47,364 nucleotides of DNA from the NCBI GenBank assembly GCA_041662765.1, contig JBAZRT010000001.1, positions 1 to 47,364 of the forward strand, in the 5' to 3' direction. The notes below the pieces were generated by a model that saw only the letters and a program-made list of their open reading frames with translations, searched no databases and was not told the DNA's origin. Position 1 is the stretch's first letter, and the number at the start of each line of letters is the position of its first letter. Shown in pieces: positions 4,890 to 31,449 of this stretch. The stretch is from Parcubacteria group bacterium (lineage in GTDB: Bacteria; Patescibacteriota; Minisyncoccia; Moranbacterales; UBA11712). Made by a program: the position numbers and the translations under genes.

Positions 4890-4924
4890 TGAAAAGGCCG
4901 TCCGGTGGTGCGCCGGGCGGCCTT
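4890..4924 (-). terminator. Hairpin terminator downstream of the small minus-strand gene
   Basis: AAGGCCGTCCGG (4894-4905) pairs with CCGGGCGGCCTT (4913-4924) in a 12-bp stem. On the - strand it is followed by TTTTC. Confidence 0.5.
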
Positions 4925-4974
4925 GGGGTCTTTTTGTTTATAATATTTTCTGGAAAGAACTGCGAGGCGATGCC

Positions 4975-5208
4975 TCAAACGGCAGCGATTTTCAGGGGAA
5001 TCGCCCCTTTGAGGCGATATCTGGATCCGTACTCTTTTCTCAACACGGCATGGGCTTCTTTTTGGGCAACTCTCCTGGCGTCGCGATTTGTCTTGCACTC
5101 AGCCAGTTCGGCGATCTCGAGGTCGAGCCGGTGCTCTTTCCTGCTCTGGCCAGGGCGAGTAAAACGAACCAGGACCACTTTGCCGAAACGTTGTTCAGTC
5201 TCACGCAT
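4975..5208 (-). CDS. Small basic hypothetical protein (77 aa from the ATG at 5208; the ORF extends to 5388)
   Basis: The locally GC-richer ORF reads MRETEQRFGKVVLVRFTRPGQSRKEHRLDLEIAELAE... A GAAGG lies about 11 nt upstream of the internal ATG. The longer N-terminal extension is covered by a 15-bp inverted repeat, so the start is uncertain. Confidence 0.4.
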   Translation of the reverse strand: MRETEQRFGKVVLVRFTRPGQSRKEHRLDLEIAELAECKTNRDARRVAQKEAHAVLRKEYGSRYRLKGAIPLKIAAV

Positions 5209-5537
5209 GACGGGTGCCTTCTTGGTAGTGTGGTGGAATTCTGTGATTTCTATGCTAGCAAATTCCTTGATTTTTGTCCATACCAACGGCAGCGAAAATT
5301 TATTTGACCGCTCCTCACCATTTTTTGTCTTGCAGCTATTGAAAAATGTATTACAACATAAAAATGGTGAGGAGGTGAACTTATCCACAGCTCCCTGGTT
5401 TGCATTCCGCGTTTTTTTTTTGCTTTGATGGGTATAGAAATAAAAACGACAAGCGAAAGGGACAAATCAGGAGGTCTTTTTTCTTTGTGCAAAAATGAAA
5501 TAATAATGCTGATTTGTGAAATACGGTGCAAATCGAA

Positions 5538-5589
5538 AGCCAACGCAAGGATGTTATCGTGGGGATAACAATTTTGCGCTGGCTTTTTT
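5538..5589 (+). terminator. Terminator-like compound hairpin in the region upstream of the TasA-like genes
   Basis: AGCCA+CGCAA (5538-5548) pairs with TTGCG+TGGCT (5574-5584). This encloses GTTATC/GATAAC and is followed by TTTTTT. Confidence 0.45.
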
Positions 5590-5790
5590 GTTATACGCAA
5601 ATCCGGAAATATTTTTTCCAATTGCGTGGATGAAAAAATAAGCAGCTGATATTCATGCCCTCTCAAGAGGGCAAGCCAATGCTGGAGGGCATAAAAATTT
5701 TGCTGCTTAATTATATATAAAAGCCACAAAGGTCGAAGGCGACTGGCTGCCTGTAAATGCGGAAATATAATCAATGAATAAAAAAATATT

Positions 5791-6324
5791 ATGAAAAACA
5801 TAATCAAAAGTCTCGTGATTGTCTTCGCCGTCGCGGCAATTGCCGGAGGAGCGACATACGCGTACTTCAACGATTCAAAAACTATCTCCAATAACACCTT
5901 TTCAGCTGGAACATTAACTCTCGACGTGACTTCTGGCGGCTCGATTCCATTCAGCTTCACAAATATGAAACCGGGAGACACCGGCGATCAGACATTTACA
6001 ATTGCGAACTCAGGGACAATCAATGGAGCGCTGAGTTTGACTGCGTTCAATGTTACGAATACGGGTGGCAAAGACAGCGTTGGAAATCTTGGAGATGCGG
6101 TATTGGTAAGTTTTCTGGATTCAAGCAATAACGTAATTGTTTCGCCAATGACATTGAATAATTTGGCCGCAGCAATCAGTTCTCTACCACAGGCGCTTGA
6201 TAACCTAAATGCAGCCACTTCGATGACTTATAAATTGCATTGGGAGCTTCCTTCAGGTACAGGAAATGAAGTTCAGGGCGATAGCGCAGTTATGAATGCA
6301 ACATTGAATCTCCAGCAAATCTAA
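5791..6324 (+). CDS. TasA/camelysin-like secreted protein with a SipW-type signal peptide (177 aa)
   Basis: The N-terminus MKNIIKSLVIVFAVAAIAGGATYAYFNDSKTISNNTFSAGTLTLDV parallels the B. subtilis TasA pre-sequence (..GGGTWAAFNDIKSKDATFASGTLDLSA). MKPGD..TIANSG follows. Confidence 0.8.
   Translation: MKNIIKSLVIVFAVAAIAGGATYAYFNDSKTISNNTFSAGTLTLDVTSGGSIPFSFTNMKPGDTGDQTFTIANSGTINGALSLTAFNVTNTGGKDSVGNLGDAVLVSFLDSSNNVIVSPMTLNNLAAAISSLPQALDNLNAATSMTYKLHWELPSGTGNEVQGDSAVMNATLNLQQI
5839..5915 (+). repeat. 77-nt block identical to 6435..6511 (copy 1)
   Basis: The sequence attgccggaggagcgacatacgcg...cagctggaacatt is identical in both TasA-like genes. Flanking codons differ. Confidence 0.9.
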
Positions 6325-6386
6325 TAGCGATATCCTAATAAAAGGATATATTTAATTTAGAATAAAACTAGAAAGGAAGGTGAATT

Positions 6387-7037
6387 ATGAAAAGAATAAT
6401 CAAAAGTCTGGTGGTGGTTTTTGCAGTCGCGGCGATTGCCGGAGGAGCGACATACGCGTACTTCAACGATTCAAAAACTATCTCCAATAACACCTTTTCA
6501 GCTGGAACATTGAGTATTGAATTGGATGCCAATGGAATCGTTAATAATAATTCCACAACCCCAACATTACCTGTTTCACTCACAAATCTCTATCCTGGAT
6601 ACAACAGCGCAGATACGGGAAACTATTATTACCCAGCTGTTGCCAATACGGGATCGCTTGATTTCAATTGGAAATTTGGCTTAATTCAAACCTCCAATGT
6701 TCCTGGGCCTAATCATGGTAACCTTAATGATGTTCTCCAAGTAAAAATTGAGGAAAGCTTGGAAAATGGTGGGCCATGGGCCTATCCTGCTGGAGGATCA
6801 TTTAACTGCCAAAATTCTGTTATTTGGTCGCCCATTACCTATCCAAATACAACCAATGTGGTTGTATATGATGGAAATGTTTCCGCTTATTCAGGTGCGG
6901 TTGATATGGGAACATTGGCGCCTGGAAAAGGCAGATGTTATCGAATGAGTTTTAGTCTGGATTCTTCTGTTGGTAATCCCTATCAAGGTTCTAGCGCGGA
7001 ATACACGATCGGTGTTGACGCTGAGTCTATTCATTAG
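6387..7037 (+). CDS. TasA/camelysin-like secreted protein with a SipW-type signal peptide, paralog 2 (216 aa)
   Basis: Its signal and N-terminal module is nearly identical to the one at 5791 (MKRIIKSLVVVFAVAAIAGGATYAYFNDSKTISNNTFSAGTL). The mature part is divergent. Confidence 0.8.
   Translation: MKRIIKSLVVVFAVAAIAGGATYAYFNDSKTISNNTFSAGTLSIELDANGIVNNNSTTPTLPVSLTNLYPGYNSADTGNYYYPAVANTGSLDFNWKFGLIQTSNVPGPNHGNLNDVLQVKIEESLENGGPWAYPAGGSFNCQNSVIWSPITYPNTTNVVVYDGNVSAYSGAVDMGTLAPGKGRCYRMSFSLDSSVGNPYQGSSAEYTIGVDAESIH
6435..6511 (+). repeat. 77-nt block identical to 5839..5915 (copy 2)
   Basis: Direct comparison of the two gene starts shows the blocks are identical. Confidence 0.9.
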
Positions 7038-7063
7038 GTCGATAGGTTGATCCAATCTCTTTT

Positions 7064-7130
7064 CACTCCGCGTTTTTTACGCGGGGTGAGTAGAGCGAGG
7101 AATCACCGATGCAAAGCATCGGAATTTCCA
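7064..7130 (+). terminator. Two tandem hairpins, a possible partial terminator after the TasA-like genes
   Basis: CACTCCGCG/CGCGGGGTG (7064-7088) forms the first hairpin. CCGATGC-AAA-GCATCGG (7106-7122) forms the second and is followed by AATTTCCAATTTC. Confidence 0.4.
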
Positions 7131-7165
7131 ATTTCAAAATCCCAATTTCCAATAAAATAAAAAAA

Positions 7166-7366
7166 ATGGAAAAAATACCAGGAGATAAGCAGGAAGAAAT
7201 AGCGCCGCAAGAAAAGCCCAAAAAGAAAATGATCAAAATAATTTGTTCAGAATGCAAAGCTTATTTGGGAGAAAAAGAGGGAGTGGAGACCGACAGGGAC
7301 ATCACGCACAGCTATTGTGAAAAGTGCAAAAACGAAGCTTTAGCCGAGCTGGAGAAATATAAGTAA
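7166..7366 (+). CDS. Small zinc-ribbon-like protein (66 aa)
   Basis: The motif CSEC-x20-CEKC follows a K/E-rich N-terminus. The ORF lies between the TasA-like genes and sipW. The start is uncertain because no clear SD was seen. Confidence 0.45.
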   Translation: MEKIPGDKQEEIAPQEKPKKKMIKIICSECKAYLGEKEGVETDRDITHSYCEKCKNEALAELEKYK

Positions 7367-7378
7367 TTTTTTGGAACA

Positions 7379-7966
7379 ATGAAAAAAATCGCAAAAATTT
7401 TTAAGATTGCAATCAATACAATTCTCGTCCTGCTGGTTCTCCTGGGCGTGTTTGTCGTGTTCTCATTCGTGCCGTTTCCGGGAAACTACAAAGTTTTCAC
7501 CGTGCAATCCGGTTCCATGGAGCCGACGATTCACACCGGGAGCATGATTTTTGTGAAGCCGGAAGCGGATTATAACGTCGGAGACATCATCACCAAACGA
7601 ACAGATGATTCAAAGATGACAGTAACGCACAGAATTGTTTCAAAAGAAGAACTGCAGGGGAAAGTTGCGTTTGAAACGAAAGGTGACGCGAACCAATCGG
7701 CCGATGGAGAGAAATTCACCAAAGAGGGGATCATTGGAAAGGAAATTTTCAAATTGCCGTATATCGGTTTTCCGGTGGGATACGCAAAGACCACTCCGGG
7801 ACTCATTTTGCTCATCATTATTCCGGCGGTGATTATTGTTTATGACGAAATGAATAAGATAAAAGACGAGATCAAGAAAAAGATTGATTATCGAAAAAGA
7901 GCCAAAAAGAGAGAGGAAAATAGCATTATATCTGATGATATTGAAGAAAAAAAAGAGGAAATATAA
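7379..7966 (+). CDS. sipW: Signal peptidase I, SipW (archaeal/ER) type
   Basis: An N-terminal TM segment is followed by VQSGSMEPTIHTGSMIFV (catalytic Ser box), VTHRIV, and ETKGDANQSADG (the KGDAN box of S26B enzymes). There is also a C-terminal TM segment. Confidence 0.85.
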   Translation: MKKIAKIFKIAINTILVLLVLLGVFVVFSFVPFPGNYKVFTVQSGSMEPTIHTGSMIFVKPEADYNVGDIITKRTDDSKMTVTHRIVSKEELQGKVAFETKGDANQSADGEKFTKEGIIGKEIFKLPYIGFPVGYAKTTPGLILLIIIPAVIIVYDEMNKIKDEIKKKIDYRKRAKKREENSIISDDIEEKKEEI

Positions 7967-7976
7967 ATCCGTGATC

Positions 7977-10088
7977 ATGAAAAGGATACGTGCGTCCGCC
8001 AAAAAAATCGGACTGGCTTTGTTTGTACTTTTTTTGATCGCGAATTTGAACAAGGTTCATCCGACAGATTCAGCCTTCACTGACACGGAAACCAGCGCCG
8101 GAAACAATTTCATTGCCGGGACATTTGATTTGGAATTGGATTCCAGTGTTTTGATGAATATTTCTGATTTTCGGGCCGGTGATGCGGTTGTCGGAAGCGT
8201 CAAAGCCAAGAACGCGGGAAGCGCGGATTTGCAATATAAATTGAATTTTCGAAAAATTTCAGGCGATGACACGCTCTGCCATGGGCTCCAGCTCGAAGCC
8301 GACAAAAACGGTTCGCTGGCATATTCCGGGGCGCTCGACGGACTGAATTTCAACGCGGGGAACCTGGCCTCCGGCCATTCGGACGAATGGGATTTCGATG
8401 TTTCGCTTCCGTCCACGGCGCCCCCAGGCCTTGAGGGACTCCAGTGCAAATTTTCTTTCGTTTTTTCGGCCTGGCAGGCGGAACTTCCCGACGGTTCCAG
8501 CGGCTTTTCCGATTCGGATGATTTTTCGGAAAACTTGATTGGTTCCGGAGACTGGACAGTGCCGGTGATTCTTGACAATGACATCGTCAAGGTTGCAGGC
8601 ACCAAAGGAACAACCAACGGAACGCAACCCAAAGCGATTGTTACCTGGCATACGAATGAAATGGCGACTTCAAACGTTGTTTATGACGCCAGTAGTTCAC
8701 ATCCGAGCTGCTCTGCATATGCCTTTCAATCTCCAATGCCTGCCGATACAAGCGCCGACAACATCGCTCATTCAGTTGAATTGCCAAATCTCACTGCCGG
8801 GACGACATATTATTATAAAATCCAGACTTCCGACGCGAGTGGCAATGAAAAGTGCTCGACCAGTCATTATTTCACTGTTCCGGTCTCAGTTTCGGATTCG
8901 CCGACCGGAAATATAGTTCTGAACGAAATTGTTCCCAATCCTTCAGGAAACGAAGCTGGTCCGATGCCCGGCGGGGAGTGGGTGGAAATATATAACAAAG
9001 GGACGACTTCGGCCGACGATATGGAGCTTGCCGGTTGGACGATCTATGACCATACGTTGGCGGGCGGTGTTGCCATAACATCAATAAATACGAATACCGG
9101 AGCGACGACATTGACTCACGGGGCGTGGCTCGCGGTTTATATGAATAAATCTTATCTTAGCAATGACTCCGACACGGTATATCTCTATAACGGCGCTAAA
9201 GGAGATGCGGGCGTGACGTTGGTTGACAGTCACGTCTGGACCGCATCAATACCTGATGACAAATCCATTGCCAGATTTCCCGACGGAACGGGGCCGTGGA
9301 TCGATCCTGAAAACACGCCGGGCGAAGAAAATAAATTGGGAGAAAAAGAGCTTGCTCAGTTCAGGACGATGACTCTCGAAAAATGTTTTGATGCGGAAGG
9401 GAAAGTGAAAAAAAGCAAAGAAGATGTTTGCCAACCGGAATTTTTGGTTTATCTTGGAATGCTCGGGAACAAAAAAGACAAAATGATGGACAAGGATATG
9501 AGGGATAAGCTTTTGGAGCCGAACTCTCCGCCGAACCAGGAAGGGGACACGACCCAAATTTCAAATGGAGAAAAATCGGATTCTGATATTCCGCCGACTG
9601 ACGGCGATGTGAACCCGCCAGCGATAGATGAGCCAAAAATAATTTCCAAAGAATTCGATATAAACCTCAAAGGAAAATTGAACGCGCCGGACGGATTCGA
9701 AGCGAGCGCGGATCAGAAATTGCAAAAAATCAAGCTTTCGTGTGAGGAAAGTGTGATAAATGACTTGAAAGATTTCGAAATTGATCTTGCGAAGGTCAAA
9801 ATTGATAAAGTCGGTAAAATTGAAATTTTGGTTTCCGATTTGAATTTGCCGAAAGACGTGGATTTGGTCACAGCCAAAAAGGATGACACAGTTGTTTTGA
9901 TAACGACCAGCGAAAAGCCGAAAGAGGAACCGAAAAAAGAAGAAATCAAAAAGGCCGACGCGGATCTTCCCAAAGCGGACAGCTTGAAAGATGATCCGAA
10001 AAAAGACGATTCTGGCGGCAATGGCGACAGCAGTACGGGTAGGGGAAGCGATCCGGCATCGAAAAGTGTTGATTCGGCAGAAGCATAA
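7977..10088 (+). CDS. Large secreted protein (703 aa) with a SipW-type signal/TasA-like N-domain, an FN3/PAP-N-like domain, a lamin-tail domain and a K/E/D/P-rich tail
   Basis: The pre-sequence is MKRIRASAKKIGLALFVLFLIANL..SAFTDTETSAGNNFIAGTFDLEL. The next domain reads IVTWHTNEMATSNVVYD...TTYYYKIQTSDASGN. The LTD-like stretch reads LNEIVPNPSGNE..GEWVEIYNKG...LAGWTIYD. The C-terminus is low complexity. Confidence 0.7.
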   Translation: MKRIRASAKKIGLALFVLFLIANLNKVHPTDSAFTDTETSAGNNFIAGTFDLELDSSVLMNISDFRAGDAVVGSVKAKNAGSADLQYKLNFRKISGDDTLCHGLQLEADKNGSLAYSGALDGLNFNAGNLASGHSDEWDFDVSLPSTAPPGLEGLQCKFSFVFSAWQAELPDGSSGFSDSDDFSENLIGSGDWTVPVILDNDIVKVAGTKGTTNGTQPKAIVTWHTNEMATSNVVYDASSSHPSCSAYAFQSPMPADTSADNIAHSVELPNLTAGTTYYYKIQTSDASGNEKCSTSHYFTVPVSVSDSPTGNIVLNEIVPNPSGNEAGPMPGGEWVEIYNKGTTSADDMELAGWTIYDHTLAGGVAITSINTNTGATTLTHGAWLAVYMNKSYLSNDSDTVYLYNGAKGDAGVTLVDSHVWTASIPDDKSIARFPDGTGPWIDPENTPGEENKLGEKELAQFRTMTLEKCFDAEGKVKKSKEDVCQPEFLVYLGMLGNKKDKMMDKDMRDKLLEPNSPPNQEGDTTQISNGEKSDSDIPPTDGDVNPPAIDEPKIISKEFDINLKGKLNAPDGFEASADQKLQKIKLSCEESVINDLKDFEIDLAKVKIDKVGKIEILVSDLNLPKDVDLVTAKKDDTVVLITTSEKPKEEPKKEEIKKADADLPKADSLKDDPKKDDSGGNGDSSTGRGSDPASKSVDSAEA

Positions 10089-10129
10089 TCATTGTTAGGC
10101 CTTGGAAGCCAAAAAATATAAAATTCTGT

Positions 10130-11176
10130 ATGAAAAAAATATCAATTATCATTTGTATTTTGTCGCTGGGACTGTTTTTTGCTGCCAATACGGCAAACGC
10201 GGCGCCAGATACGCCAAGACTTGAAGTCGTGTCAAACAAGCCGTTGTTCAATGTGTCAGATGCTGCGCCGGGAAAAGCATACCCTTCTCCCGTCACAATC
10301 AGAAATCACGGAGATAATGAAGAAAATTTTCAATTTGAGGTGACGATAAACGCGGATCCGTCGATTTTGGCCGATCACTTGTTTTTCAAAATCAATAAAG
10401 TGGAAACATTGGATCCGGTCGCTGGGGAAAGTTGCGCGTATGATTGCGATGGTAACGTGACAATGTCCAGTCTCAACGGAAGGGAGATATTTGTCAATCA
10501 TATTCCTCCGCACAGCACGAATTATTTCCTATTTTATCTGGTATTTGATCCGGAATCAGGAACCGGCCTTATGGGGGAAACGATGAACTTTGATATGATA
10601 TTGGGATACGAGGATCAAGATGGAAGTCAAGAAGATGGAGCAAATGATAGCAATAACAACAATATCACGATATCAACCAACGCGAATCCGGGTTTTTTTC
10701 AGAGTGTTCAATCATTTATTGGAAATGTCAGCGGTGCTGAAATTTCCGGAGAACAGGTTGTAGGCGGAGAAAATCAAGACAATCCAATTGCGAGAGATGG
10801 TATTGTGAAGGGAGAAGAAGCCTCAAATTGCCAAGGCTGGCCGAAATGGGTCTGGGTTTTGATGCTGATCGCGTATTTCGCCGCGTTTTTGTGGCGGACT
10901 TTTGACAAAATCAAGCAGCAAATTGAAAAGCGGGACATTCGCCGGAAATGGCAGGCGGCGCTGGCGATCGTGGCATTTCTCATTTGGTATTTTTTCGACA
11001 AGTGCCGGGAGTTTTGGTGGTTTGTGATTTTGGCGATGATCGGCGGAGCAGTGATATATCTTCTTTATCTTTATTTGTTCAGGAAAAATATTCGAGAGGA
11101 GCGCGCGAAAGTCGAAAGCGGATCCGGCCAAAATGCTCCAAAAGATCCGACCAATCAAATTCCGCCGGCAGTCTAA
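10130..11176 (+). CDS. Secreted protein with a TasA-like beta-sandwich motif and three C-terminal TM helices (348 aa)
   Basis: It has the Sec-type signal peptide ..FFAANTANA/AP. The stretch FNVSDAAPGKAYPSPVTIRNHGDNEENFQFEV resembles the PGD..N.G motif of the neighbouring TasA-like proteins. The C-terminal hydrophobic segments are WVWVLMLIAYFAAFLW, LAIVAFLIWYFF and WWFVILAMIGGAVIYLLYLYLF. Confidence 0.6.
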   Translation: MKKISIIICILSLGLFFAANTANAAPDTPRLEVVSNKPLFNVSDAAPGKAYPSPVTIRNHGDNEENFQFEVTINADPSILADHLFFKINKVETLDPVAGESCAYDCDGNVTMSSLNGREIFVNHIPPHSTNYFLFYLVFDPESGTGLMGETMNFDMILGYEDQDGSQEDGANDSNNNNITISTNANPGFFQSVQSFIGNVSGAEISGEQVVGGENQDNPIARDGIVKGEEASNCQGWPKWVWVLMLIAYFAAFLWRTFDKIKQQIEKRDIRRKWQAALAIVAFLIWYFFDKCREFWWFVILAMIGGAVIYLLYLYLFRKNIREERAKVESGSGQNAPKDPTNQIPPAV

Positions 11177-11199
11177 GCAAGAAGAGAAAAAATTCAAAA

Positions 11200-11236
11200 A
11201 ACAACCCCATTCAGCTTTCAGCGGGTTGTTTTTTGT
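11200..11236 (+). terminator. Rho-independent terminator
   Basis: AACAACCC (11200-11207) pairs with GGGTTGTT (11223-11230) and is followed by a T-run. Confidence 0.6.
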
Positions 11237-11304
11237 TTGCTGTTTATTAGTCTAAGTGCTAAAGTTATCTTCAAAGAGGTCTAATTATCAATAAAATAAA
11301 AAAA

Positions 11305-11997
11305 ATGAAAAAAACGCTATTCGCATCACTGTTGCTTATTTTTGGATTGAGCTTTCAAGTTCAAGCGGCAAGCACAAATCCCAATCAAGGGGCAAAGCAG
11401 GGACAGGCTGGTTCTCAAGCCCAAGGCAGTCAAACTGGAAATACTGTTCAGACGGAAGAAAAAAACAAGGTGATGAACCGAGGAGAAAGCAATCAGATCC
11501 AGACCCAGGAGCAAAACGCAGTTCAAGCTCAGGACAGCGCCGCCAAAGACAACGCAAGCAATGGCAAATCCAGCTCCAATCCATCGATACAAAAAAGAAG
11601 CCAAGTGGCGAACGCCGTCCAAGCTATGCTTCAAATAGCCGACAGAAATAGTGGGATCGGACAGCAAGTCAGGGTTATTGCCCAGAATCAAAACCAAAAT
11701 AAAATAAGGTTGGAACAAAACGTCGAGAAAATTCAAAGAAAAAGCGGATTTGCAAAGTTTTTCATGGGACCAAATTTCGGAGAAATAAATGACGCTCAAA
11801 AAACATTGGAGCAAAACAAAGAGCAGATTCGCCAGCTGAACCAAATCAAAACCCAGCTTTCCAACGAGGGTGATCAGCAGCAGCTCGCTGAGCAGATCAG
11901 AGTTCTGGAACAATCCAATCAAGAGATTGAAACTTTGCTTGCCGGCGCACAAGGCGGATTCAGTCTGTTTGGCTGGCTGAATAAGCTGATTTCATAG
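11305..11997 (+). CDS. Secreted Q/N-rich coiled-coil protein (230 aa)
   Basis: The signal peptide is MKKTLFASLLLIFGLSFQVQA. A Q/G/S/N-rich low-complexity region follows, then a heptad-like Q/E/L region. Confidence 0.6.
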   Translation: MKKTLFASLLLIFGLSFQVQAASTNPNQGAKQGQAGSQAQGSQTGNTVQTEEKNKVMNRGESNQIQTQEQNAVQAQDSAAKDNASNGKSSSNPSIQKRSQVANAVQAMLQIADRNSGIGQQVRVIAQNQNQNKIRLEQNVEKIQRKSGFAKFFMGPNFGEINDAQKTLEQNKEQIRQLNQIKTQLSNEGDQQQLAEQIRVLEQSNQEIETLLAGAQGGFSLFGWLNKLIS

Positions 11998-12503
11998 GAC
12001 AAAAATTTATTTTCATTTCCAATGGTTGACTGGAAATTATAATTGGATCAGGAAAGAATATATCTAAAAGGCGGAAAAAGAGATGCTATTTTTCTGGGAT
12101 GTATTCTGGGCGAAAAATTTGCCCAATTTGCAACTCTATGCCGGAGTTGTGCTGATCAGTTCTTTCTCAAAGATCATCGGAATCTCCCTTATTTTGATCA
12201 AAATTTTTGGCGCGTCAACCTAGGAGGATTGGCCAGCAAACATTTTATATCATCTCCGAAGGAGGTTCGCTATGGCAGGCAAGCAGTATGACGGCTTTAT
12301 TATTTTTTATTCATCGGCGGGTTGGCAACCATAGTTTGGCTTCCGGCAAAACAGGGCTGCAAAAAAGTGGCTGATTTTTTCCGGCAGCTTGCGGATGTGG
12401 CAATCAATCGGGCCATCTGGTCTTTGGTCGGCCGGAAGCTGATGTGAACGCGCTTTTTTTTCTGAAGTTGAAAGTCCCGAGTTCCAAGAAATTTGGGCGA
12501 GGC

Positions 12504-12538
12504 GAGGGGTGCAGAAGTCGTGCGCTCCTCTTTTTTTT
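12504..12538 (+). terminator. Rho-independent terminator closing a short non-annotated transcription unit
   Basis: GAGGGGTGC (12504-12512) pairs with GCGCTCCTC (12522-12530) over 9 bp, two of them G-U. TTTTTTTT follows. Confidence 0.6.
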
Positions 12539-12547
12539 GAAACAGCC

Positions 12548-12576
12548 TTGATCATTTTCGAAAAAGAAAGTAAGAT
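12548..12576 (+). promoter_or_regulatory. Sigma70-like promoter (TTGATC-N17-TAAGAT)
   Basis: The -35 lies at 12548-12553 and the -10 at 12571-12576, about 45 nt upstream of the 74-aa ORF. Confidence 0.45.
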
Positions 12577-12622
12577 GATATGAAACAAAAAATGCTGAAA
12601 AAGTAGGGAGGAAAAAACGGGG

Positions 12623-12847
12623 ATGTATATTTTGCCAGAGAGATATTCTTTCTGCAGGCAGTTCTTCAACCGCGGGCGCTGGCACATCAAGGACATACAG
12701 ACCAATGGAAGCGGTCTCTCGGTGCTTCCACTGTGCAGCGTCTCGGGAAAATTCCAATTCAATAAGTCCGAAATCGCTTTGGCGAGGCAGATTTGCCCGG
12801 TGTGTCTCAAAATTGCGAAAGAATCGGGAATCATTCCTCAAAGCTGA
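12623..12847 (+). CDS. Small Cys-containing hypothetical protein (74 aa)
   Basis: The ORF has the SD GGGAGG 9-10 nt upstream of the ATG, its own promoter and a strong terminator. It contains C11, C38 and CPVC (58-61). Confidence 0.5.
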   Translation: MYILPERYSFCRQFFNRGRWHIKDIQTNGSGLSVLPLCSVSGKFQFNKSEIALARQICPVCLKIAKESGIIPQS

Positions 12848-12867
12848 AAACAAAATTCGGGGGAGGC

Positions 12868-12904
12868 AAAGGGCGCGATCAACATCGGTTGCGCCCTTTT
12901 TTAT
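12868..12904 (+). terminator. Rho-independent terminator
   Basis: AAAGGGCGC...GCGCCCTTTTTTATTT: the stem GGGCGC/GCGCCC is extended by G-U/A-U pairs and followed by a T-run. Confidence 0.7.
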
Positions 12905-12931
12905 TTCTCCAGAAAACAGGAATTTGCCAAA

Positions 12932-12966
12932 TAAAAAAGCCGGGGTTTCCTCGCGAAAACCCCGGC
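12932..12966 (-). terminator. Rho-independent terminator (minus strand), convergent with the previous one
   Basis: GCCGGGGTTT (12939-12948) pairs with AAACCCCGGC (12957-12966). The - strand reads the hairpin followed by TTTTTTAT. Confidence 0.7.
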
Positions 12967-13011
12967 GTACCATCTCTTTCCCTGGAGGGGGATCCAGAGG
13001 AGAGAAAATCA

Positions 13012-13173
13012 TCATTTCGGCTGGGCAGCTTTTTCAGCTGCTTGAAGGAGCAGTTGATACTCGAAATTATCCATGTTCCGCTCACTCATTTGAGCCATGG
13101 TCACGAGGGAGTATATGACCAAACCCAGAAGACCGCCCAGGATGATCCCCGGAAAGATTAATGCCGTTGGCAT
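13012..13173 (-). CDS. Small membrane protein (53 aa), below the ORF-track cutoff
   Basis: The ORF reads MPTALIFPGIILGGLLGLVIYSLVTMAQMSERNMDNFEYQLLLQAAEKAAQPK. An AGGAGA SD lies 7 nt upstream of the ATG (cat at 13171-13173). The stop tca is at 13012-13014 and a terminator lies downstream. Confidence 0.45.
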   Translation of the reverse strand: MPTALIFPGIILGGLLGLVIYSLVTMAQMSERNMDNFEYQLLLQAAEKAAQPK

Positions 13174-13557
13174 GCTCGCTCTCCTAAAAATAAAATAACT
13201 GCATTTCTATTGGCGCTATTATATCACAGAGATAAGTCATTGTCAAATTGACGGCCGGAAATTCTTCGCATTTTTTCACAATTCGGAATTTAGCCAATAT
13301 GAACCAGGAAGGGTATGATGAGGCTAGTCGTCTAAATAATAAAAAACATCAACAGTTCTGCTTCCAGCGGGGCTGTTTTTTTGATTTGCGAATATTGGAG
13401 CGGATTTCAGATTTGTCAAAATTGCATAATGGCTTATATAAGGCAAAATAATTGTTTTTTCGCTTTTTTTACTTGACTTATTTAAAAAGGAGTGTTACAA
13501 AAATACGAAGTCCTTTGACAACTTCATGTTATAAATTCCCATAAGGATGGTGCAAAT

Positions 13558-14649
13558 ATGCGTCTATCACGGCTTTTGGATTGGAGGTGGTGGTTCGGCC
13601 TCAGGCCGAAATTTGCCATCGAACCGCCGGTCGCGAAGTATTCAATTACTATTGTCGTGCCGGCCTACAACGAAGAAGATTCAATAGGCGCCACCATCAG
13701 CAACCTGAAATTGCAGACGGTTCCGATTGAGGAAATCATCGTGGTTGATGATTGCTCCTCGGATGGAACCGGCGAAATTTCCAGGGAAATGGGCGTCACC
13801 GTTATCCGGACTCACAAAAATCAGGGATCAAAGGCGATGGCCCAGAATTATGTCATTCCGCAAATCGTGTCCGATCTTATCGTGACAATTGATGCGGATA
13901 CGATTCTGGCGCCGGATGCCATTGAGAAAACATTGCCCTGGTTCAACAGCCCGAAGACGGCTTCCGTATGCGGGTTTGTTATTCCGCAAAAAGTGGAAAC
14001 CCTTTGGGAAAGAGGGAGGTTTATCGAATACGTATTTGGCATATCGCTCCATAAGAGAGCCCAGCAGAATATAGGGCTGGTTATGGTTTCCTCCGGCTGT
14101 TTTTCCGTCTTTCGCACGGAACTGCTCAAGATGATGGGCGGTTTCGACGCGAGGACAATGGCCGAGGATATGGATCTCACTTGGAATTTCCTGCTCGAGG
14201 GATATGAGATCTATTGCGAGCAGACGGCCTATTGCTATCCGTTCGATCCACCGACGCTCAAAATATTCGTCAACCAGATCGACCGATGGTACCGGAGCTT
14301 TTTCCAGAACGTTTCCGTTCACAGCTTCAGAAAAAACAAGGGGCTGGGAATCATGATCTATGGATACCTCCTGGAACCGGCACTGGCACCGATTCTTGCC
14401 GTTGCGTTTCTCACGACGATGAAGTGGAATTTCTGGTGGCTAATCATGCTGGCCGCCGCTATCGATCTGACGATCGTGGCGATCCCGTGCCTCATCAAAG
14501 GCGCGGTTACCGGCATGACTGGAAAAGTTTTGACCTCCTTGCCGGCTTATTGGGTCATAAGATTTGTTAATATCTATGTCTTTTGGCGGTCCTTCTGGAG
14601 AGAGTGGATCATCAAAGACAAACTCAACAGCTGGAACAAGGGTCACTGA
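13558..14649 (+). CDS. Processive family-2 glycosyltransferase (PgaC/IcaA/NodC/cellulose-synthase-like synthase)
   Basis: Motifs seen are VVPAYNEE, VVDDCSSDGT, TIDADT (DxD), TMAEDMDL (ED) and VNQIDRWYRSF (QxxRW). C-terminal TM helices are present. The gene is GC-rich relative to its flanks. Confidence 0.85.
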   Translation: MRLSRLLDWRWWFGLRPKFAIEPPVAKYSITIVVPAYNEEDSIGATISNLKLQTVPIEEIIVVDDCSSDGTGEISREMGVTVIRTHKNQGSKAMAQNYVIPQIVSDLIVTIDADTILAPDAIEKTLPWFNSPKTASVCGFVIPQKVETLWERGRFIEYVFGISLHKRAQQNIGLVMVSSGCFSVFRTELLKMMGGFDARTMAEDMDLTWNFLLEGYEIYCEQTAYCYPFDPPTLKIFVNQIDRWYRSFFQNVSVHSFRKNKGLGIMIYGYLLEPALAPILAVAFLTTMKWNFWWLIMLAAAIDLTIVAIPCLIKGAVTGMTGKVLTSLPAYWVIRFVNIYVFWRSFWREWIIKDKLNSWNKGH

Positions 14650-14683
14650 AGTCTCAACCGCGAAATCAAAGAAGGAAAAAGTT

Positions 14684-15793
14684 ATGAGAAAGTGGATGTT
14701 GGTTTTGGCTTTGGCGGCCGCGTTGATGATTCCATCCGCGGCCATGAGCGCTCCGGCTCCGAAGGAAATTATCTTGGGAAAATCGAAGATCATTGTGCCG
14801 CCAGGCGCTTTGGTCGGCGCTCAGGTTGACCGGGTCACCCGCGATACCACTCTGCCTGATGGCAGTGATCTCAAGAACGCCTATCCCTTCCGGGTTGTCA
14901 CCGACAAGTCCGGGCTGGTTACCTACATGGAAGGCCGCCTGGCCGGCCAGCTGATTGATTACGCCAAAGTCCAGGTCGTAGGCCTGGGACCGGCGTATGC
15001 CAAATTAGTGGGCGAAACGGGCGACTTCTACACTGAAGACGGCGCCGGGAATTTCAAGTTCAGAGTGGATCCGTCCAAACTGAACTATTCCTCGGTGCTG
15101 TATGCCGACAAGCGGTCTTTTGCCGTGATGATCGACACCCACGGTTTCAACGCTGTGGCCGCACCGGCAATTCACCTGGCTCAATTGTCCAAGAAGAAAC
15201 TCAGCCTGGTGATTGCCTGCATGGACCTGCCTTCGAAAGCTGAAGCGGCCCTGTTTCTGGCCCAAAACGGCATCAACTGCTACGGGCCCTGCGACCTTTT
15301 CGGATCCCAGATCGTCGGCTACAAGAAAGACAATCCCAATGCCGCGACAGTCCTGGGGACCGCCCCTATCCGCAAGCTCAAAAAGGGCGGAGCGGTGATT
15401 GGGAATCAGTCGGTGCGTATCGCGCTGGCTGAAGAGATCGTGGTCCAAAAGACCGACAATGCCAAATATCCGGACCAGTACTGCGACGCGCCCTACAACT
15501 ATTTTCGTGCCGTGCAGGAAAAGCTGGGACTGGCCTTGAAGCTCACTCCCGTTGTGGCCACCATCGGCCAGACGGATAAGTTGGTCGCCAAAGCCAAAGA
15601 AGTCGGCGCCCAGGTGATTGGAGTGAGAGTCCTGAACGAAAAGGACGCGGCTCCGATCGCGGCGTGGCTCAAAGAAAACCCCAAAAATCGGGCCATTCTT
15701 TTTCACTCGGCTGCTTATGAGCCGGGCTATGACCTGTTTTTCCAATTCCCGAAGCAGACCAGCTTTGGGGACCTCAATCCACAAGTTCTGTAG
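14684..15793 (+). CDS. Secreted/periplasmic hypothetical protein (369 aa)
   Basis: The ATG at 14684 is preceded by GAAGGAAAAAG. The signal peptide is MRKWMLVLALAAALMIPSAAMSA. No recognisable motif was seen, and codon usage matches the island. Confidence 0.65.
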   Translation: MRKWMLVLALAAALMIPSAAMSAPAPKEIILGKSKIIVPPGALVGAQVDRVTRDTTLPDGSDLKNAYPFRVVTDKSGLVTYMEGRLAGQLIDYAKVQVVGLGPAYAKLVGETGDFYTEDGAGNFKFRVDPSKLNYSSVLYADKRSFAVMIDTHGFNAVAAPAIHLAQLSKKKLSLVIACMDLPSKAEAALFLAQNGINCYGPCDLFGSQIVGYKKDNPNAATVLGTAPIRKLKKGGAVIGNQSVRIALAEEIVVQKTDNAKYPDQYCDAPYNYFRAVQEKLGLALKLTPVVATIGQTDKLVAKAKEVGAQVIGVRVLNEKDAAPIAAWLKENPKNRAILFHSAAYEPGYDLFFQFPKQTSFGDLNPQVL

Positions 15794-15809
15794 TCAGAGG
15801 GGGTAAACG

Positions 15810-16295
15810 ATGAAGAAGGCAAGAAAGTGGCAATTTGTTGCGTTGGCGTTTGCGGTCATGTTCTTTCTGGCCGGCAGTGTTGCCATCGCAGGGGAAACTT
15901 ATCCCCAATTTCCCTGGTCCACCTGGGGCGAGGTATCCCAAACCATCGCGGGCAAGGATAATCCCGGGTTCAAAGCGGATGGGTATCTCGAGCAAGGTAT
16001 CGATTGGACGAAGTTCGGCAGCAGCTCGAAGTTCAGTCCGGTCCTCAATACCTTCGTGGGTTTCCGCTTCACCGCCAGCAATCACCCTGAGTACTGGTGG
16101 GACAACAAGCTCGGGCCTTGGTTTGGCGCCAAGCTGAAGTGGGATGTAAACCCCTATCCCGGAGCCTGGGGCCAGATCGCCCTCGGCATTCGCGGCGAGT
16201 ACTATACGTATTTCAGTACCGTCCGCGATCGGCCCTACAGCAACGACCTTCGCTGTGTCGCCTTTCTCCAATGGTCTTTTGGCGGCAAGTGGTAG
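15810..16295 (+). CDS. Small outer-membrane beta-barrel-like protein (161 aa)
   Basis: It has a signal peptide (..FFLAGSVAIAG). Amphipathic strands alternate along the sequence (FVGFRFTAS, WFGAKLKWDV, IALGIRGEYYTYF, RCVAFLQWSF). The C-terminus FGGKW is aromatic, as in OMP beta-signals. Confidence 0.55.
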   Translation: MKKARKWQFVALAFAVMFFLAGSVAIAGETYPQFPWSTWGEVSQTIAGKDNPGFKADGYLEQGIDWTKFGSSSKFSPVLNTFVGFRFTASNHPEYWWDNKLGPWFGAKLKWDVNPYPGAWGQIALGIRGEYYTYFSTVRDRPYSNDLRCVAFLQWSFGGKW

Positions 16296-16310
16296 GCGGG
16301 GGAGGCAGGC

Positions 16311-16910
16311 ATGTACAAGGGTAAAAGCGGATTATGCGGAACGGTAGCGCACGTGCTCCTCGCCTGTCCCATCCTGGCGGTGGTTCTGGGCGTGGGAGGT
16401 GCGGCACTTTACGTGAAATCTTATATCCGCGGGCAGCCTCCTCCTTATACGGTGGAGGTAACCGCCCAAAAGATCATGGCAGATCCTGCTTTCCAGGCCA
16501 AAGTTCGGGAGACTGAAAAAGTTCCCGGAGCCAGGGAGCTGACTGATGAGGCCGAAAAGGTCTTTCAGGGGATCGTTATGGTCGAAAGCGGAGACAAGGA
16601 GATCGGCGTCCATCCAGACGGCGTATCCCACGGTCCGGCGGGTCTCACCCTGCCGGCTCTCAAAGACGTGCATCGGCTGGTCTGCAATTCGAGCGAAAAG
16701 CTCGATTATCAGGCCATCCTGAAAAATCCGGTGGAGAGCAGGAAGTTTGCCAAGCTCTACTATCTGGAAATGGTGCACCGCTTTGGGGACGTGAAAACCG
16801 CGGCCATTGCCTATCACCACGGACCCACCCGGGTCTCGCGGTGGATAAGGCAGCACAAGTCTCTGCCGGATAGCTACTGGAACAAAGTCCAGGAGGCGAT
16901 GGGCGACTAA
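16311..16910 (+). CDS. Membrane-anchored SLT-domain lytic transglycosylase
   Basis: An N-terminal TM segment is followed by MVESGDKE (catalytic E-S), HGPAGLT and AIAYHHGP (AYNxGP-like). The SD is GGGGGAGG. Confidence 0.7.
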   Translation: MYKGKSGLCGTVAHVLLACPILAVVLGVGGAALYVKSYIRGQPPPYTVEVTAQKIMADPAFQAKVRETEKVPGARELTDEAEKVFQGIVMVESGDKEIGVHPDGVSHGPAGLTLPALKDVHRLVCNSSEKLDYQAILKNPVESRKFAKLYYLEMVHRFGDVKTAAIAYHHGPTRVSRWIRQHKSLPDSYWNKVQEAMGD

Positions 16911-16954
16911 CGGCCGTCCAAGAAAAGAGGAGGGAAAAGAAGCAAAGAAGTTCT

Positions 16955-16987
16955 GGCGGCATCACGCAATTCGATGCCGCCTTTTTT
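16955..16987 (+). terminator. Rho-independent terminator
   Basis: GGCGGCATC (16955-16963) pairs with GATGCCGCC (16973-16981) and is followed by TTTTTT. Confidence 0.8.
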
Positions 16988-17007
16988 AAACTTAAAAAAA
17001 CGCACAC

Positions 17008-17036
17008 TTGACAAATTGAAGACAATATATTACGAT
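17008..17036 (+). promoter_or_regulatory. Sigma70-like promoter (TTGACA-N17-TACGAT)
   Basis: The -35 lies at 17008-17013 and the -10 at 17031-17036, upstream of the BamD-like gene. Confidence 0.55.
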
Positions 17037-17115
17037 TAGCTGTTCGTTGAAATCGGCACAACGCTTAGAAATGGCAATTTTGCCAATAACGTTGAAAGAA
17101 TAGGAGATATTGCTC

Positions 17116-17742
17116 ATGACTAAGGTGGGGAAAATCAGGTTTTTGGCCGTGGTCTTTGCTCTGCTTCTTTGCTGGGGCTGTGGCGGGATGAGTTTCAGCT
17201 CCAAGCCGGAAGCGTCCAGCACTGAAGTCTTTGGTCCGATGCCAGCGGAACAGCTTCTCAAGATGGCCGAGGACCGCTTCAAGGCTGGCGACTATTTGGC
17301 CGCCATGCGCGCCTATGACGCGTTCGAAAAGGATCATCCCGGGAGCCAGCTCATGCCATTTTGCGTTTTCGGCCGTGGTCTCAGCTATATGCACGAAATG
17401 GAGACCATCGACCGCGACCAAGCCATGTGCCGCAAAGCCGCTGAGCAGTTTCAGCGGGTCGTGGACCGGTATCCGGATTGGAAGTACACGGCTGATGCGA
17501 AAGCGCATCTCAAAAAGTGCCGTGGCAACCTGGCGGAACACGAATTTTATGTGGGCTCCTATTATCAGCGGACCGGGCGCTATCGGGCCGCATTGGTTCG
17601 CTACCAGGGACTTGCCCGGGATTATCCGGAGTTCACCAAAGGAGCCGAAGTCAAAAAAGGCATCGCGGAATGCGAAGCCGAACTGGCCAAGGCGCCAAAG
17701 CCAAAGGGATTGATCGCCCAGCTCTTCGATGCCCAGTGGTAA
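17116..17742 (+). CDS. BamD/YfiO-like TPR outer-membrane lipoprotein (208 aa)
   Basis: The AGGAGA SD precedes the ATG at 17116. A lipobox-like LLLCWGC-GG is present. TPR-like repeats include AEDRFKAGDYLAAMRAYDAFEKDHPGS, AAEQFQRVVDRYPDWKY..DAKAHL and EHEFYVGSYYQRTGRYRAALVRYQGLARDYPEF, a typical BamD signature. Confidence 0.75.
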   Translation: MTKVGKIRFLAVVFALLLCWGCGGMSFSSKPEASSTEVFGPMPAEQLLKMAEDRFKAGDYLAAMRAYDAFEKDHPGSQLMPFCVFGRGLSYMHEMETIDRDQAMCRKAAEQFQRVVDRYPDWKYTADAKAHLKKCRGNLAEHEFYVGSYYQRTGRYRAALVRYQGLARDYPEFTKGAEVKKGIAECEAELAKAPKPKGLIAQLFDAQW

Positions 17743-17771
17743 AAGACAAGAAGTTCTTTTTGAGCAAAACC

Positions 17772-17807
17772 GAACCCCGATGCCGAGCATGGGGGTTCTT
17801 TATTTTT
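17772..17807 (+). terminator. Rho-independent terminator
   Basis: GAACCCC (17772-17778) pairs with GGGGTTC (17792-17798). An inner ATGC/GCAT helix is present, and CTTTATTTTT follows. Confidence 0.7.
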
Positions 17808-17882
17808 CCTGCTTTTTTTGGCGGGTTGTTTTTTTGGTTGATTTTTGATAGAATATTTCAAGTCGAAGCAATATTACAACAA

Positions 17883-18153
17883 GCCGTTGTAGCTCAGCTG
17901 GCAGAGCAACTCCATGGTAGGCAACTGCCCATAGGCGGAGAAATCCGTCAATGAATCCCGAATCACGGTTAAAGGCCCTAGCCGGGTCAAGACCGTAGCG
18001 CTTTCTTGGCGCTCGAACGACTGACAAGGGGAGCTAAATTTGTCAATTGGCAAATATGTTCAAGATACAGTCTAATCCTCTTATATGGTTGAATAACAAA
18101 AAAAGAGGTATAAATGAAGGAGTAGGTCCGCGGTCCGAATCCGCGCAACGGCT
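17883..18153 (+). tRNA. tRNA-Thr(GGU) interrupted in the anticodon loop by a 198-nt intron
   Basis: The 5' exon is GCCGTTG-TA-GCTC-AGCTGGCA-GAGC-A-ACTCC-ATGGT (17883-17918). The 3' exon is AA-GGAGT-AGGTC-CGCGG-TCCGAAT-CCGCG-CAACGGC-T (18117-18153). Acceptor, D, anticodon and T stems all pair. The spliced loop is AUGGUAA. Confidence 0.75.
17919..18116 (+). ncRNA. Group I-like self-splicing intron (no ORF)
   Basis: The 5' exon ends in U and the intron ends in G. The helices found are:
- P2: GGCGGA-GAAA-TCCGTC (17934-17949)
- P3: TCCC (17956-59) with GGGG (18028-31)
- P4: ACGGT (17965-69) with ACCGT (17992-96)
- P5: GGCCC/GGGTC
- P6: AGCGC/GCGCT (17997-18013)
- P7: GACTG (18019-23) with CAGTC (18068-72)
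- P8: ATTTGTC-AATT-GGCAAAT (18038-55)
- P9: CCTCTT/AAGAGG (18077-18108)
The order P3-P4-P5-P4'-P6-P7-P3'-P8-P7'-P9 is the group I topology. Confidence 0.6.
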
Positions 18154-18180: not shown

Positions 18181-19068
18181 ATGTCCGGAAAAAAAATATC
18201 GATATTCCTCGCTGTGCTGATCGTTATCATTGTCGGATTTTTGTGGTATCAAAAAGGGAAGGGCAAAAAAAATCAAAATACCCAGTCATCCGCGAAGCTG
18301 TCGTCTCTCAAGAATTCTCCCGCAGGGGACAACAGCGCGGCTGACGCGAATTCCGATCAGGCTATGGAGGATTTCGACGCGCAGTGCACGAACGGCCAAT
18401 GGGTGAAGATCGCCGATGTGGAAGGGGAAATGACAACTGCCAAAGGAGTGGTGCAAGCGGTCGATCCGGAAAATACCGCTACTGCGGCTTTCCAAAGTTA
18501 TCGAAATTATCTCGACGGAAGCGAGAAAATCGCGCTTGTTGATCCAAATGTGAAGACAGATACTGATGATAGCGATGTGGATCTTTTCCAGACCAGGGAA
18601 GTGGAAGTTCAGGGAGTGCTCGGCCAAGGCGCGGCAAAAGAAGCGAAAGTTTCCCAGATCAGATGCGCGGGCAAAGAAACGGACAAAAACGCGGCGGACG
18701 ATCGCACCAAAATTTTGAACTATATTTCGGCGAACATAAGCTCGATTGCTCCGGAAAAAGCTCCGCAGAAAAATTGGGTAGCTTCCTCGGTGGTCATTTT
18801 GGATGAAAAGGATGTTTATGTCGATTATTATGACGCTATCGAAGACGATGAAAACAGTGATCCGGAACTGGATACAACGCACAGGGTTCTGCTGGAGATC
18901 GCTCCCGGAGGGAATGGCAATTTCAATGCAAATGTGCTAGCCTATTGGGTCCCGGGTGAAGAAGATTTTGTGCTCAAGCAAGGGAATGACAAATTCAAAA
19001 ATCTCGATGAATTTTCTCTGCCGTCGTATTCCTATGATTCCGAGAGCAATTCATGGTCGAGAGACTAA
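18181..19068 (+). CDS. Membrane-anchored hypothetical protein (295 aa)
   Basis: It has an N-terminal TM segment (ISIFLAVLIVIIVGFLW) and an acidic extracytoplasmic region. No recognisable domain was seen. Confidence 0.55.
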   Translation: MSGKKISIFLAVLIVIIVGFLWYQKGKGKKNQNTQSSAKLSSLKNSPAGDNSAADANSDQAMEDFDAQCTNGQWVKIADVEGEMTTAKGVVQAVDPENTATAAFQSYRNYLDGSEKIALVDPNVKTDTDDSDVDLFQTREVEVQGVLGQGAAKEAKVSQIRCAGKETDKNAADDRTKILNYISANISSIAPEKAPQKNWVASSVVILDEKDVYVDYYDAIEDDENSDPELDTTHRVLLEIAPGGNGNFNANVLAYWVPGEEDFVLKQGNDKFKNLDEFSLPSYSYDSESNSWSRD

Positions 19069-31436: not shown

Positions 31437-31449
31437 ATGCAGTTAAAAC

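Follow-up and report, generated by a model that had tools for sequence, protein, structure and literature searches.

From our analysis of a 47,364-nucleotide stretch of DNA from a Parcubacteria group bacterium (assembly GCA_041662765.1, contig JBAZRT010000001.1, positions 1 to 47,364; hereafter the window), we report a mobile cassette of five genes (g1 to g5; 13469-17800, forward strand) that is a discrete, recent and horizontally acquired piece of foreign cargo in this genome and that most likely belongs to a conserved, so far undescribed variant of the synthase-dependent exopolysaccharide machinery. The first gene, g1 (13558-14649), encodes a membrane glycosyltransferase of family 2 (GT2), a candidate synthase of 363 amino acids (aa). 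It is followed by g2 (14684-15793), a secreted or anchored protein of an unnamed, widespread family (369 aa from its ATG); g3 (15810-16295), a signal-peptide protein of 161 aa with six long amphipathic beta strands in its predicted model; g4 (16311-16910), a membrane-anchored divergent SLT (lysozyme-like, GH23-type) protein of 199 aa; and g5 (17116-17742), a lipoprotein of the BamD family with tetratricopeptide repeats (TPR), of 208 aa from ATG or 210 aa from a TTG at 17110. All five open reading frames (ORFs) lie on the forward strand and are intact; successive genes are 34, 16, 15 and about 200 bp apart, and their GC content (50-57%) and GC at third codon positions (GC3, 0.64-0.71) exceed those of the neighbouring genes (42-48% and 0.44-0.58). 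An intrinsic terminator follows g4 (16955-16988, forward strand), built of a 9-bp GC-rich stem, a 9-nt loop and a run of six T; the hairpin (GGCGGCATC-9 nt-GATGCCGCC) with its T6 occupies 16955-16981, the region is conserved with one of the relatives described below (L076) as far as 16988, and a pattern scan had overlooked the terminator because its loop is 9 nt long. The last gene has a sigma-70-like promoter of its own (17008-17036, forward strand; TTGACA-17-TACGAT), which is a consensus match only (10 of 12 positions), and its own terminator (17772-17798, forward strand; GAACCCC...GGGGTTC and then a T-rich tail), which marks the right end of the foreign DNA. A first-pass annotation made from the letters of the window had described five co-directional, close-set, GC-rich genes, a strong terminator at 16955 closing g1 to g4, and a TTGACA-N17 promoter and terminator for g5; the ORF layout and the GC and GC3 values bear this out, the terminator was found exactly there, and both g5 signals could be read.

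The limits of the cassette follow from comparison with related contigs. Two contigs (L002 and L076) carry the same five genes; their similarity to the window starts at 13469/13577 and stops at 17742, only the cassette is common (∼72% nucleotide and 57-82% amino-acid identity), the DNA on either side being unrelated. The L002 copy, too, stands out as a GC-rich island, with surroundings of 38-45% GC. An 85-kb contig of a sister genome, which lacks the cassette, encodes an alanyl-tRNA synthetase (AlaRS), a DUF4012 protein and a 756-aa protein at least 90% identical to those of the window, in identical gene order. In that genome, a 230-aa gene (window 11305-11997) and a 295-aa gene (window 18181-19068) are 275 bp apart, whereas 6.2 kb separates them in the window. 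In a more distant relative of the host (L115), similarity resumes at window position 17814, 70 bp past the g5 stop codon, and runs at 92% identity over 106 bp into a tRNA-Thr gene. The left junction was set by gene order, by L076 and by L115. The insertion into a genome of the Candidate Phyla Radiation (CPR) is a point that the first-pass annotation had missed. Purifying selection acts on all five genes, with dN/dS of 0.07-0.28 across the three copies in those comparisons where the saturated dS could be estimated.

An imperfect direct repeat flanks the cassette. The left copy (13367-13388, GCGGGGCTGTTTTTTTGATTTG) was compared with the right copy (17820-17840), which is host sequence upstream of the tRNA-Thr gene and is identical to the site that L115 has without an insertion. 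The copies agree at about 21 of 23 aligned positions. This is suggestive of site-specific insertion, but the repeat is T-rich and may be a chance match. The cassette ends carry no long att-like or inverted repeats, and the L002 cassette has no flanking direct repeat. A phage or plasmid origin was considered and set aside, as no relatives of g2 or g3 were found in IMG/VR and no plasmid DNA matched. Beyond the cassette, the window encodes MnmA, a short AlaRS, DUF4012, LTD and camelysin-like surface proteins, a MacAB-type transporter, a Wzz/Wzy/GT4/Rml glycan locus and FtsA; the DUF4012, LTD and short AlaRS genes look CPR-like, fitting the Parcubacteria assignment under which NCBI lists the contig.

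A neighbourhood scan of 118 fetched loci, using tblastn and family hidden Markov models, placed the cassette among a broader set of gene clusters. The complete order g1-g2-g3-g4-g5 occurs in the window, L002 and L076, and the order g1-g2-g3(-g4) in L009, L010 and L079. Eight Nitrospirota-type loci (L005, L077, L082, L087, L088, L090, L091 and L103) have g3-g4-g1, all of g1 to g4 are present in shuffled order in L092, and g1-g2-g4 occurs in L065, a metagenome-assembled genome (MAG) labelled ‘Firmicutes UBA2203’. A g1-g2 pair without further partners was found in Saccharibacteria, ANME-1, a halobacterial MAG and others. Most g3-anchored contigs long enough to show neighbours have g1, g2, g3 and g4 together in varied orders, and g3 and g4 also join g1 in many unnamed metagenome contigs. 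The earlier expectation that the five genes would co-occur elsewhere therefore stands for g1 to g4 across many loci, while the five-gene set as a whole recurs only in L002 and L076. In a Chlorobiaceae genome (L012), g3 lies near g1-g2; a serine resolvase gene (L012 2858-3406) sits between the g3 homologue and g1-g2 there, which hints that the cluster of this MAG is mobile or rearranged too.

Several of these clusters carry additional genes that bear on the likely product. A stand-alone PilZ gene (110-128 aa, above the Pfam threshold) lies upstream of g3, and in several cases directly adjacent to it, in 11 Nitrospirota-type loci (L006 and L084-L093; e.g., L090 1001-1330 and L087 3913-4242). A LuxR/GerE regulator gene, usually divergent and beside PilZ, lies upstream in eight loci, with a weaker match in a ninth. 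A gene of glycoside hydrolase family 18 (GH18) follows g1 in L088 and L103, both of the loci with enough downstream sequence. A deacetylase gene of carbohydrate esterase family 4 (CE4) lies between g1 and g3 (L078, L097), upstream of g3 (L095, L107) or after g1 (L015). Together with the PgaC/IcaA-like domain of g1 described below, the PilZ, CE4 and GH18 genes of the relatives point to an N-acetylhexosamine polymer, probably of the N-acetylglucosamine (GlcNAc) type, under the control of cyclic diguanylate (c-di-GMP). GH18 and GH23-type folds act on beta-1,4-linked GlcNAc or N-acetylmuramic acid. From these specificities, a chitin- or chitosan-like chain would be at least as likely as beta-1,6-linked poly-N-acetylglucosamine (PNAG).

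The product of g1 matches Glycos_transf_2 (1e-29) and Glyco_tranf_2_3 (1e-25) in Pfam. Its best NCBIfam model is PgaC_IcaA (128.6 bits), ahead of NodC (57 bits) and the CelA models (27-39 bits), and this score lies below the curated cut-off of 422.3 bits for the PgaC/IcaA equivalog TIGR03937. The motifs DDCSSD at 64, DAD at 112, ED at 203-204 and QIDRW at 240 agree with the GT2 enzyme with DxD, ED and QIDRW motifs that had been read from the sequence. A GT-A domain is followed by two or three C-terminal transmembrane (TM) helices (267-322), with no N-terminal TM helix. With its GT2 domains, DxD/ED/QIDRW motifs and C-terminal helices, g1 has the features of an inner-membrane synthase that is predicted to be processive. 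Its best matches among PDB sequences are 6yv7 (3e-12) and BcsA (6e-9). Identity is 55-68% to g1 of g3-linked loci and 40-45% to g1 of g1-g2 loci that lack g3. Because g1 is closest to the g3-linked g1, the cassette must derive from a lineage that carries g3, probably one whose cells have an outer membrane, and is not the CPR’s own version.

For g2, searches of Pfam, NCBIfam and, with its profile, PDB sequences gave no match, and its N-terminus has a signal-like segment, in keeping with the earlier description of a 369-aa signal-peptide protein without a known motif. More than 165 homologues were found, spread over CPR, Methanobacteriaceae, ANME-1, Altiarchaeales, Bacillota, Acidobacteriota and other lineages. 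The AlphaFold2 model (mean predicted local distance difference test, pLDDT, 95) has an N-terminal beta region followed by alpha/beta lobes; a Foldseek search of this model against PDB gave TM-scores of at most 0.28, from lobes weakly resembling periplasmic binding proteins. The signal peptide and the invariant residues (H153, C179, D181, K185, C203, D204, H341 and D363) make g2 look like an extracytoplasmic enzyme or a polymer-handling subunit. The g2 gene adjoins g1 orthologues in CPR, archaea and other bacteria, ANME-1, several CPR proteins and locus L014 have g2 joined to a CE4 deacetylase, and in L044 it is fused to TPR and a long N-terminal extension with no other Pfam match. We considered g2 as a constant companion of g1 throughout its family and discarded the idea, since in Methanobacteriaceae and Acidobacteriota g2 stands by itself or forms part of larger fusions. 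Methanobacteriaceae have at least two g2-family copies without an adjacent g1-type GT2 (L037/L041, CAVYVR010000005.1; L052/L074, CP099988.1), and in Acidobacteriota and DPANN-type archaea the g2 domain forms the C-terminal part of proteins of 560-1300 aa. From these lone, multicopy and fused forms, the g2 family has roles outside the cluster.

No match to g3 was found in Pfam or NCBIfam, and a PDB sequence search with its profile gave nothing usable. The predicted model (pLDDT 80) shows a signal peptide and then six strands of 9-16 residues each (36-44, 54-68, 78-90, 100-113, 119-134 and 146-159). Hydrophobic and polar faces alternate along the strands to an extent that none of 1,000 shuffles reached, and the protein is aromatic-rich and ends in ...FGGKW, the last residue being Trp. 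A Foldseek search of the model returned no significant match; the nearest were the OmpA TM domain (TMq 0.40, E 1.5) and pore-forming hairpins. Thus, the amphipathic strands and C-terminal aromatic residue noted earlier are present, whereas the implied closed barrel is not predicted for g3 alone: like a monomeric OmpA/OmpX-type barrel, g3 has a signal peptide, amphipathic strands and an aromatic C-terminal residue (Trp), but such a barrel has at least eight strands and only six are predicted for g3. The first-pass annotation had made its module depend on g3 being predicted as a barrel, a question that the six-strand model answers neither way. Six strands are unable to close a normal barrel; a barrel formed by an oligomer of g3 is possible.

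The g3 family is rare, with 19 matches in a word-indexed search and 193 in a profile search of 1.84 billion representatives. It was found in loci of Nitrospirota and Chlorobiaceae, two outer-membrane lineages, as well as in one MAG labelled Gammaproteobacteria, and is missing from the CPR and archaeal g1-g2 loci. Two g3 units share one ORF in at least three lineages (L010, L107/108 and L109/110/112), and about one third of the family representatives carry two repeats. Six of the seven long g3 relatives tested are proteins of 800-1055 aa in which a TPR array at the N-terminus precedes two g3 repeats at the C-terminus, and two further long relatives have an N-terminal SPOR peptidoglycan-binding domain before two g3 repeats. 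The TPR-(g3)x2 proteins match none of the known barrel families, and P0262, the only one searched, has no PDB match. Taken together, the strand alternation, the tandem ORFs and the TPR-(g3)x2 architecture incline us, with moderate confidence, to see g3 as a subunit of an oligomeric outer-membrane pore.

The earlier assignment of g4 as a membrane-anchored SLT-fold protein agrees with an N-terminal TM segment (15-39) and a Pfam SLT match (PF01464) that is weak but above threshold (28.7 bits against a cut-off of 21.3). A Glu-Ser pair (VES at 91-93) occupies the catalytic position, so that both the score and the E-S motif expected of SLT/GH23 proteins are present; the pair is kept in the cassette clade, L010 and L065. 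Among PDB sequences, nothing usable matched. Invariant motifs are GVHPDGxSxGPxGLT and AYxxGPT, and g4 adjoins g3 in at least 20 loci. Because the catalytic Glu is not family-wide, the g4 family may bind glycan generally, with cleavage by some members only.

The product of g5 matches YfiO (93 bits) and the BamD subfamily model TIGR03302 (137 bits against a cut-off of 81.4), lies below the enterobacterial, E. coli-type equivalog NF008119 (54 against 363 bits), and finds BamD in PDB at 3e-13. It aligns with TPR2-5 of E. coli BamD, starting after TPR1, is about 35 residues shorter (208 vs. 245 aa), and retains an Arg aligned with R197, a residue of E. coli BamD that presumably contacts BamA. A signal peptide and a lipobox-like [GS]-C-G-G are conserved in the three cassette copies. 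A generic TPR protein could be ruled out by the TIGR03302 match and the BamD alignment. Of the earlier BamD/AlgK-type label, the BamD half holds; no AlgK family match was obtained, and g5 may be a BamD and not an AlgK-like scaffold.

Five synthase-dependent exopolysaccharide systems were listed in 2020, and the blueprint consists of a synthase, a c-di-GMP receptor, periplasmic modifying enzymes, and a TPR plus a pore (PMC7112194). Set against this blueprint, the cassette supplies the synthase, a protein of glycosidase type, a TPR lipoprotein and a candidate pore, while the receptor is missing here and encoded in the relatives; it would work like a synthase-dependent system without belonging to any named one. 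In Pfam and NCBIfam, no cassette protein matched a PgaA, PgaB, BcsB, BcsC, AlgE or AlgK family, and the cassette does not qualify as a set of Pga, Bcs, Alg or Pel components; with the PgaC_IcaA score also below its cut-off, the earlier statement that no named system fits is upheld. Our literature searches, limited in reach, found no described equivalent and nothing on BamD in CPR.

There are parallels with Pga/Ica (PgaABCD of E. coli and IcaADBC of staphylococci), as the g1 catalytic domain is nearest to PgaC/IcaA, cluster relatives carry CE4 de-N-acetylases like PgaB/IcaB, distant g3 relatives are built like PgaA with TPR and then a beta domain, and a c-di-GMP receptor, here the PilZ of the relatives, appears as a control element. 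On the other hand, g1 scores 129 against 422 bits and lacks N-terminal TM helices, and the cassette has no PgaD/IcaD and no CE4 or GH153 domain. Its pore candidate is a 161-aa unit of six strands in place of a 16-strand barrel, its glycosidase-like part is SLT-type, and GH18 in the relatives hints at a beta-1,4 and not a beta-1,6 linkage. As in the alginate system, a split TPR lipoprotein (g5) and beta protein (g3) stand beside a synthase and a polymer-cleaving enzyme; unlike it, the synthase is not Alg8/Alg44, g5 is of the BamD family (its repeat-family matches are TPR and YfiO only, with no AlgK-type family), and g3 has only a third of the length of AlgE, to which neither sequence nor fold search relates it. 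With Bcs, the cassette shares the processive GT2 motifs and the BcsA match of g1, an extracytoplasmic partner gene beside the synthase (g2 as compared with BcsB), a glycosidase-type gene in the operon, and TPR-plus-beta-domain proteins among the g3 relatives, a design the long g3 relatives have in common with PelB, BcsC and PgaA. It differs from Bcs in that g1 has no PilZ domain and scores low with the CelA models, and in that the g2 fold resembles no solved structure detectably.

On balance we favour, though without great certainty, the interpretation that the cassette is a horizontally acquired, compact member of an uncharacterised synthase-dependent exopolysaccharide family built for a two-membrane envelope. 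Under this interpretation, g1 would act as a minimal cellulose-synthase-like GT2 that polymerises a sugar, most likely GlcNAc-based, and threads the chain through the cytoplasmic membrane. The family’s constant extracytoplasmic partner, g2, would receive or modify the nascent chain; in the relatives, CE4 is fused to g2 or a CE4 gene holds the place of g2 in the gene order. The g4 protein would cut back the polymer or clear a path for it through the peptidoglycan, g3 would oligomerise into the outer-membrane pore, and g5, putatively derived from BamD, would scaffold the periplasmic path or help to insert g3.

Several observations count against this interpretation. The g3 model is six-stranded and without a significant structural neighbour, and soluble sandwiches also have alternating strands. 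The Nitrospirota-type g4 homologues have Ser or Cys in place of the catalytic Glu. No PilZ, GGDEF or other known c-di-GMP receptor domain was found in the five cassette proteins. The N-terminal TM helices of PgaC are missing from g1, and the first PDB match of g1, 6yv7, is what we take to be a non-processive archaeal mannosyltransferase, a 355-aa GT2 with a minimal cellulose-synthase-like fold. None of the more distant clusters has g5, which is moreover transcribed from a putative promoter of its own and ends at a separate terminator. Finally, at least part of the cassette may be inert in its present host.

The role of g5 is the least certain of the five because it travels only with the closest cassette clade (window, L002 and L076), and it may act as a scaffold in the manner of AlgK, serve specifically in g3 assembly, or be no more than a co-transferred bamD. 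That the module comprises g1 to g4, with g5 being the donor’s housekeeping bamD carried along and without a role in polysaccharide export, is a tentative alternative that we rate below the five-gene module but take seriously. The BamD subfamily match, the alignment with TPR2-5 including the Arg at the R197 position and the lipoprotein signal all fit a true BamD, and the separate promoter and terminator, together with the absence of g5 from every cluster outside the closest clade, fit a passenger gene. The g4-g5 spacer is likewise variable, being 200-260 bp in the window and L002 and 700 bp in L076, where the low-GC spacer (L076 3579-4274) holds a small membrane-protein ORF (3799-4122). Against a passenger, g5 has been kept in all three cassette copies despite their unrelated flanks, with dN/dS of 0.14-0.28 in the two comparisons with estimable dS. 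The nearest non-cassette BamDs are only 36-45% identical to g5, are 30 aa longer and lie in ordinary housekeeping contexts (e.g., L007), unlike g5, which lacks TPR1 and sits on a mobile cassette in a CPR genome. A TPR partner would also be expected because g3 relatives are physically fused to TPR arrays.

We consider it unlikely that g1 makes no polymer and is instead a membrane GT2 acting on a lipid or a lipid-linked acceptor (to give a glycolipid or a polyprenol-linked sugar). In that case, g2 to g4 would serve in the envelope, using or remodelling the product of g1 or the cell wall. Such a role would suit the small size of g1, its lack of N-terminal TM helices and of PilZ, the rank of 6yv7 ahead of BcsA, and equivalog scores that are all far under their cut-offs; QxxRW-type motifs occur in lipid glycosyltransferases too. 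The g1 relatives, however, are linked with PilZ, CE4, GH18, SLT-like and TPR-fused beta proteins, which together read as the parts list of polymer secretion, and PgaC_IcaA is by far the best family model for g1. An assembly artefact, in which a CPR contig was joined to GC-rich DNA of a two-membraned organism from the same sample, would account for the sharp composition jump at the block and for a separate 1.6-kb contig of that sample whose g3-g4 are identical and whose partial g2 is 99% identical, but is very improbable. The host gene order goes on to the left and to the right of the block, so that an artefact would require two exact chimeric joins, and an island of this kind is present in L002 as well, within a different low-GC context and in two independent runs.

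Returning to the five-gene export module, its use inside a CPR cell is a separate question. To our knowledge, CPR hosts have no outer membrane and should lack BamA. No Omp85 or POTRA match was found in the ORFs scanned within 47 kb of the host. In a host without an outer membrane, the g3/g5 half is therefore probably without function, and a working context is likely for the g1-g2(-g4) half only; g1-g2, a pair native to other CPR, could be functional here. The host has a Wzz/O-antigen-ligase-like/GT4/RmlA-B-D glycan locus of its own downstream (window 26726-42312), so that the cassette brings in a second polysaccharide pathway with a different mechanism. A further and rather speculative proposal, to which we give little weight, is that g3 represents a new class of outer-membrane polysaccharide pore made of six-strand units (single, tandem or TPR-fused), with g5 docking g3 onto the beta-barrel assembly machinery (BAM) of the recipient. 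If true, the export system would be portable between hosts, and a bolder corollary is that the Parcubacteria recipient would use g3 and g5 in its own envelope.

The family would add one more synthase-dependent system, with a range over Nitrospirota, Chlorobiaceae, CPR and archaea. It brings two conserved parts without a family or fold assignment (g2 and g3) together with a minimal synthase, and with g3 and its TPR-fused relatives it can be tested whether an export pore is assembled out of small repeats. Cells with one and with two membranes may share the g1-g2 pair as an ancient core. A two-membrane-type cassette, including a BamD homologue, in a CPR genome is a clean, datable instance of gene flow into reduced episymbionts, and the insertion poses the question of what use the cargo has inside a CPR host.

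Left of the cassette lies a gene-poor leader (11998-13468) that is also missing from the sister genome. Its ORFs have no Pfam match; no integrase, transposase or other recognisable gene was found in these 1.5 kb, and the leader has no similarity to any fetched locus. On its reverse strand, a 53-aa ORF with a single TM segment (13012-13173) is preceded by a perfect TTGACA-17-TATAAT promoter, extended by TG (13246-13218), and followed by a terminator with a 12-bp hairpin (12966-12939).

Right of the cassette, the tRNA-Thr(GGU) gene (17883-18153) is 271 nt long, with ∼197 nt inserted after the anticodon (roughly 17921-18117), while L115 has an intact 74-nt tRNA-Thr (14041-14114). The split gene was missed by ARAGORN, and Rfam gave no group I intron or other match to it at E up to 1. 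The interval from AlaRS/VTT to tRNA-Thr is hypervariable among close relatives (window 4856-17813, L115 12999-13972): L115 and L116 have neither the cassette nor the LTD/camelysin-like, caspase-like and Gln/Asn-rich surface-protein genes, and the caspase-like gene of this interval is a Peptidase_C14 in the sister genome. Farther along, a 206-aa ORF on the reverse strand (30063-30683), the strand opposite to that of the 760-aa gene described next, looks spurious. A second GC-rich stretch (27759-30041, 55-59% GC) encodes this 760-aa signal-peptide protein, which has no Pfam match, a C-terminal half rich in Trp, Gly and aromatic residues and a Pro-rich tail; it is kept in the sister genomes (756-761 aa) and is therefore older than the cassette.

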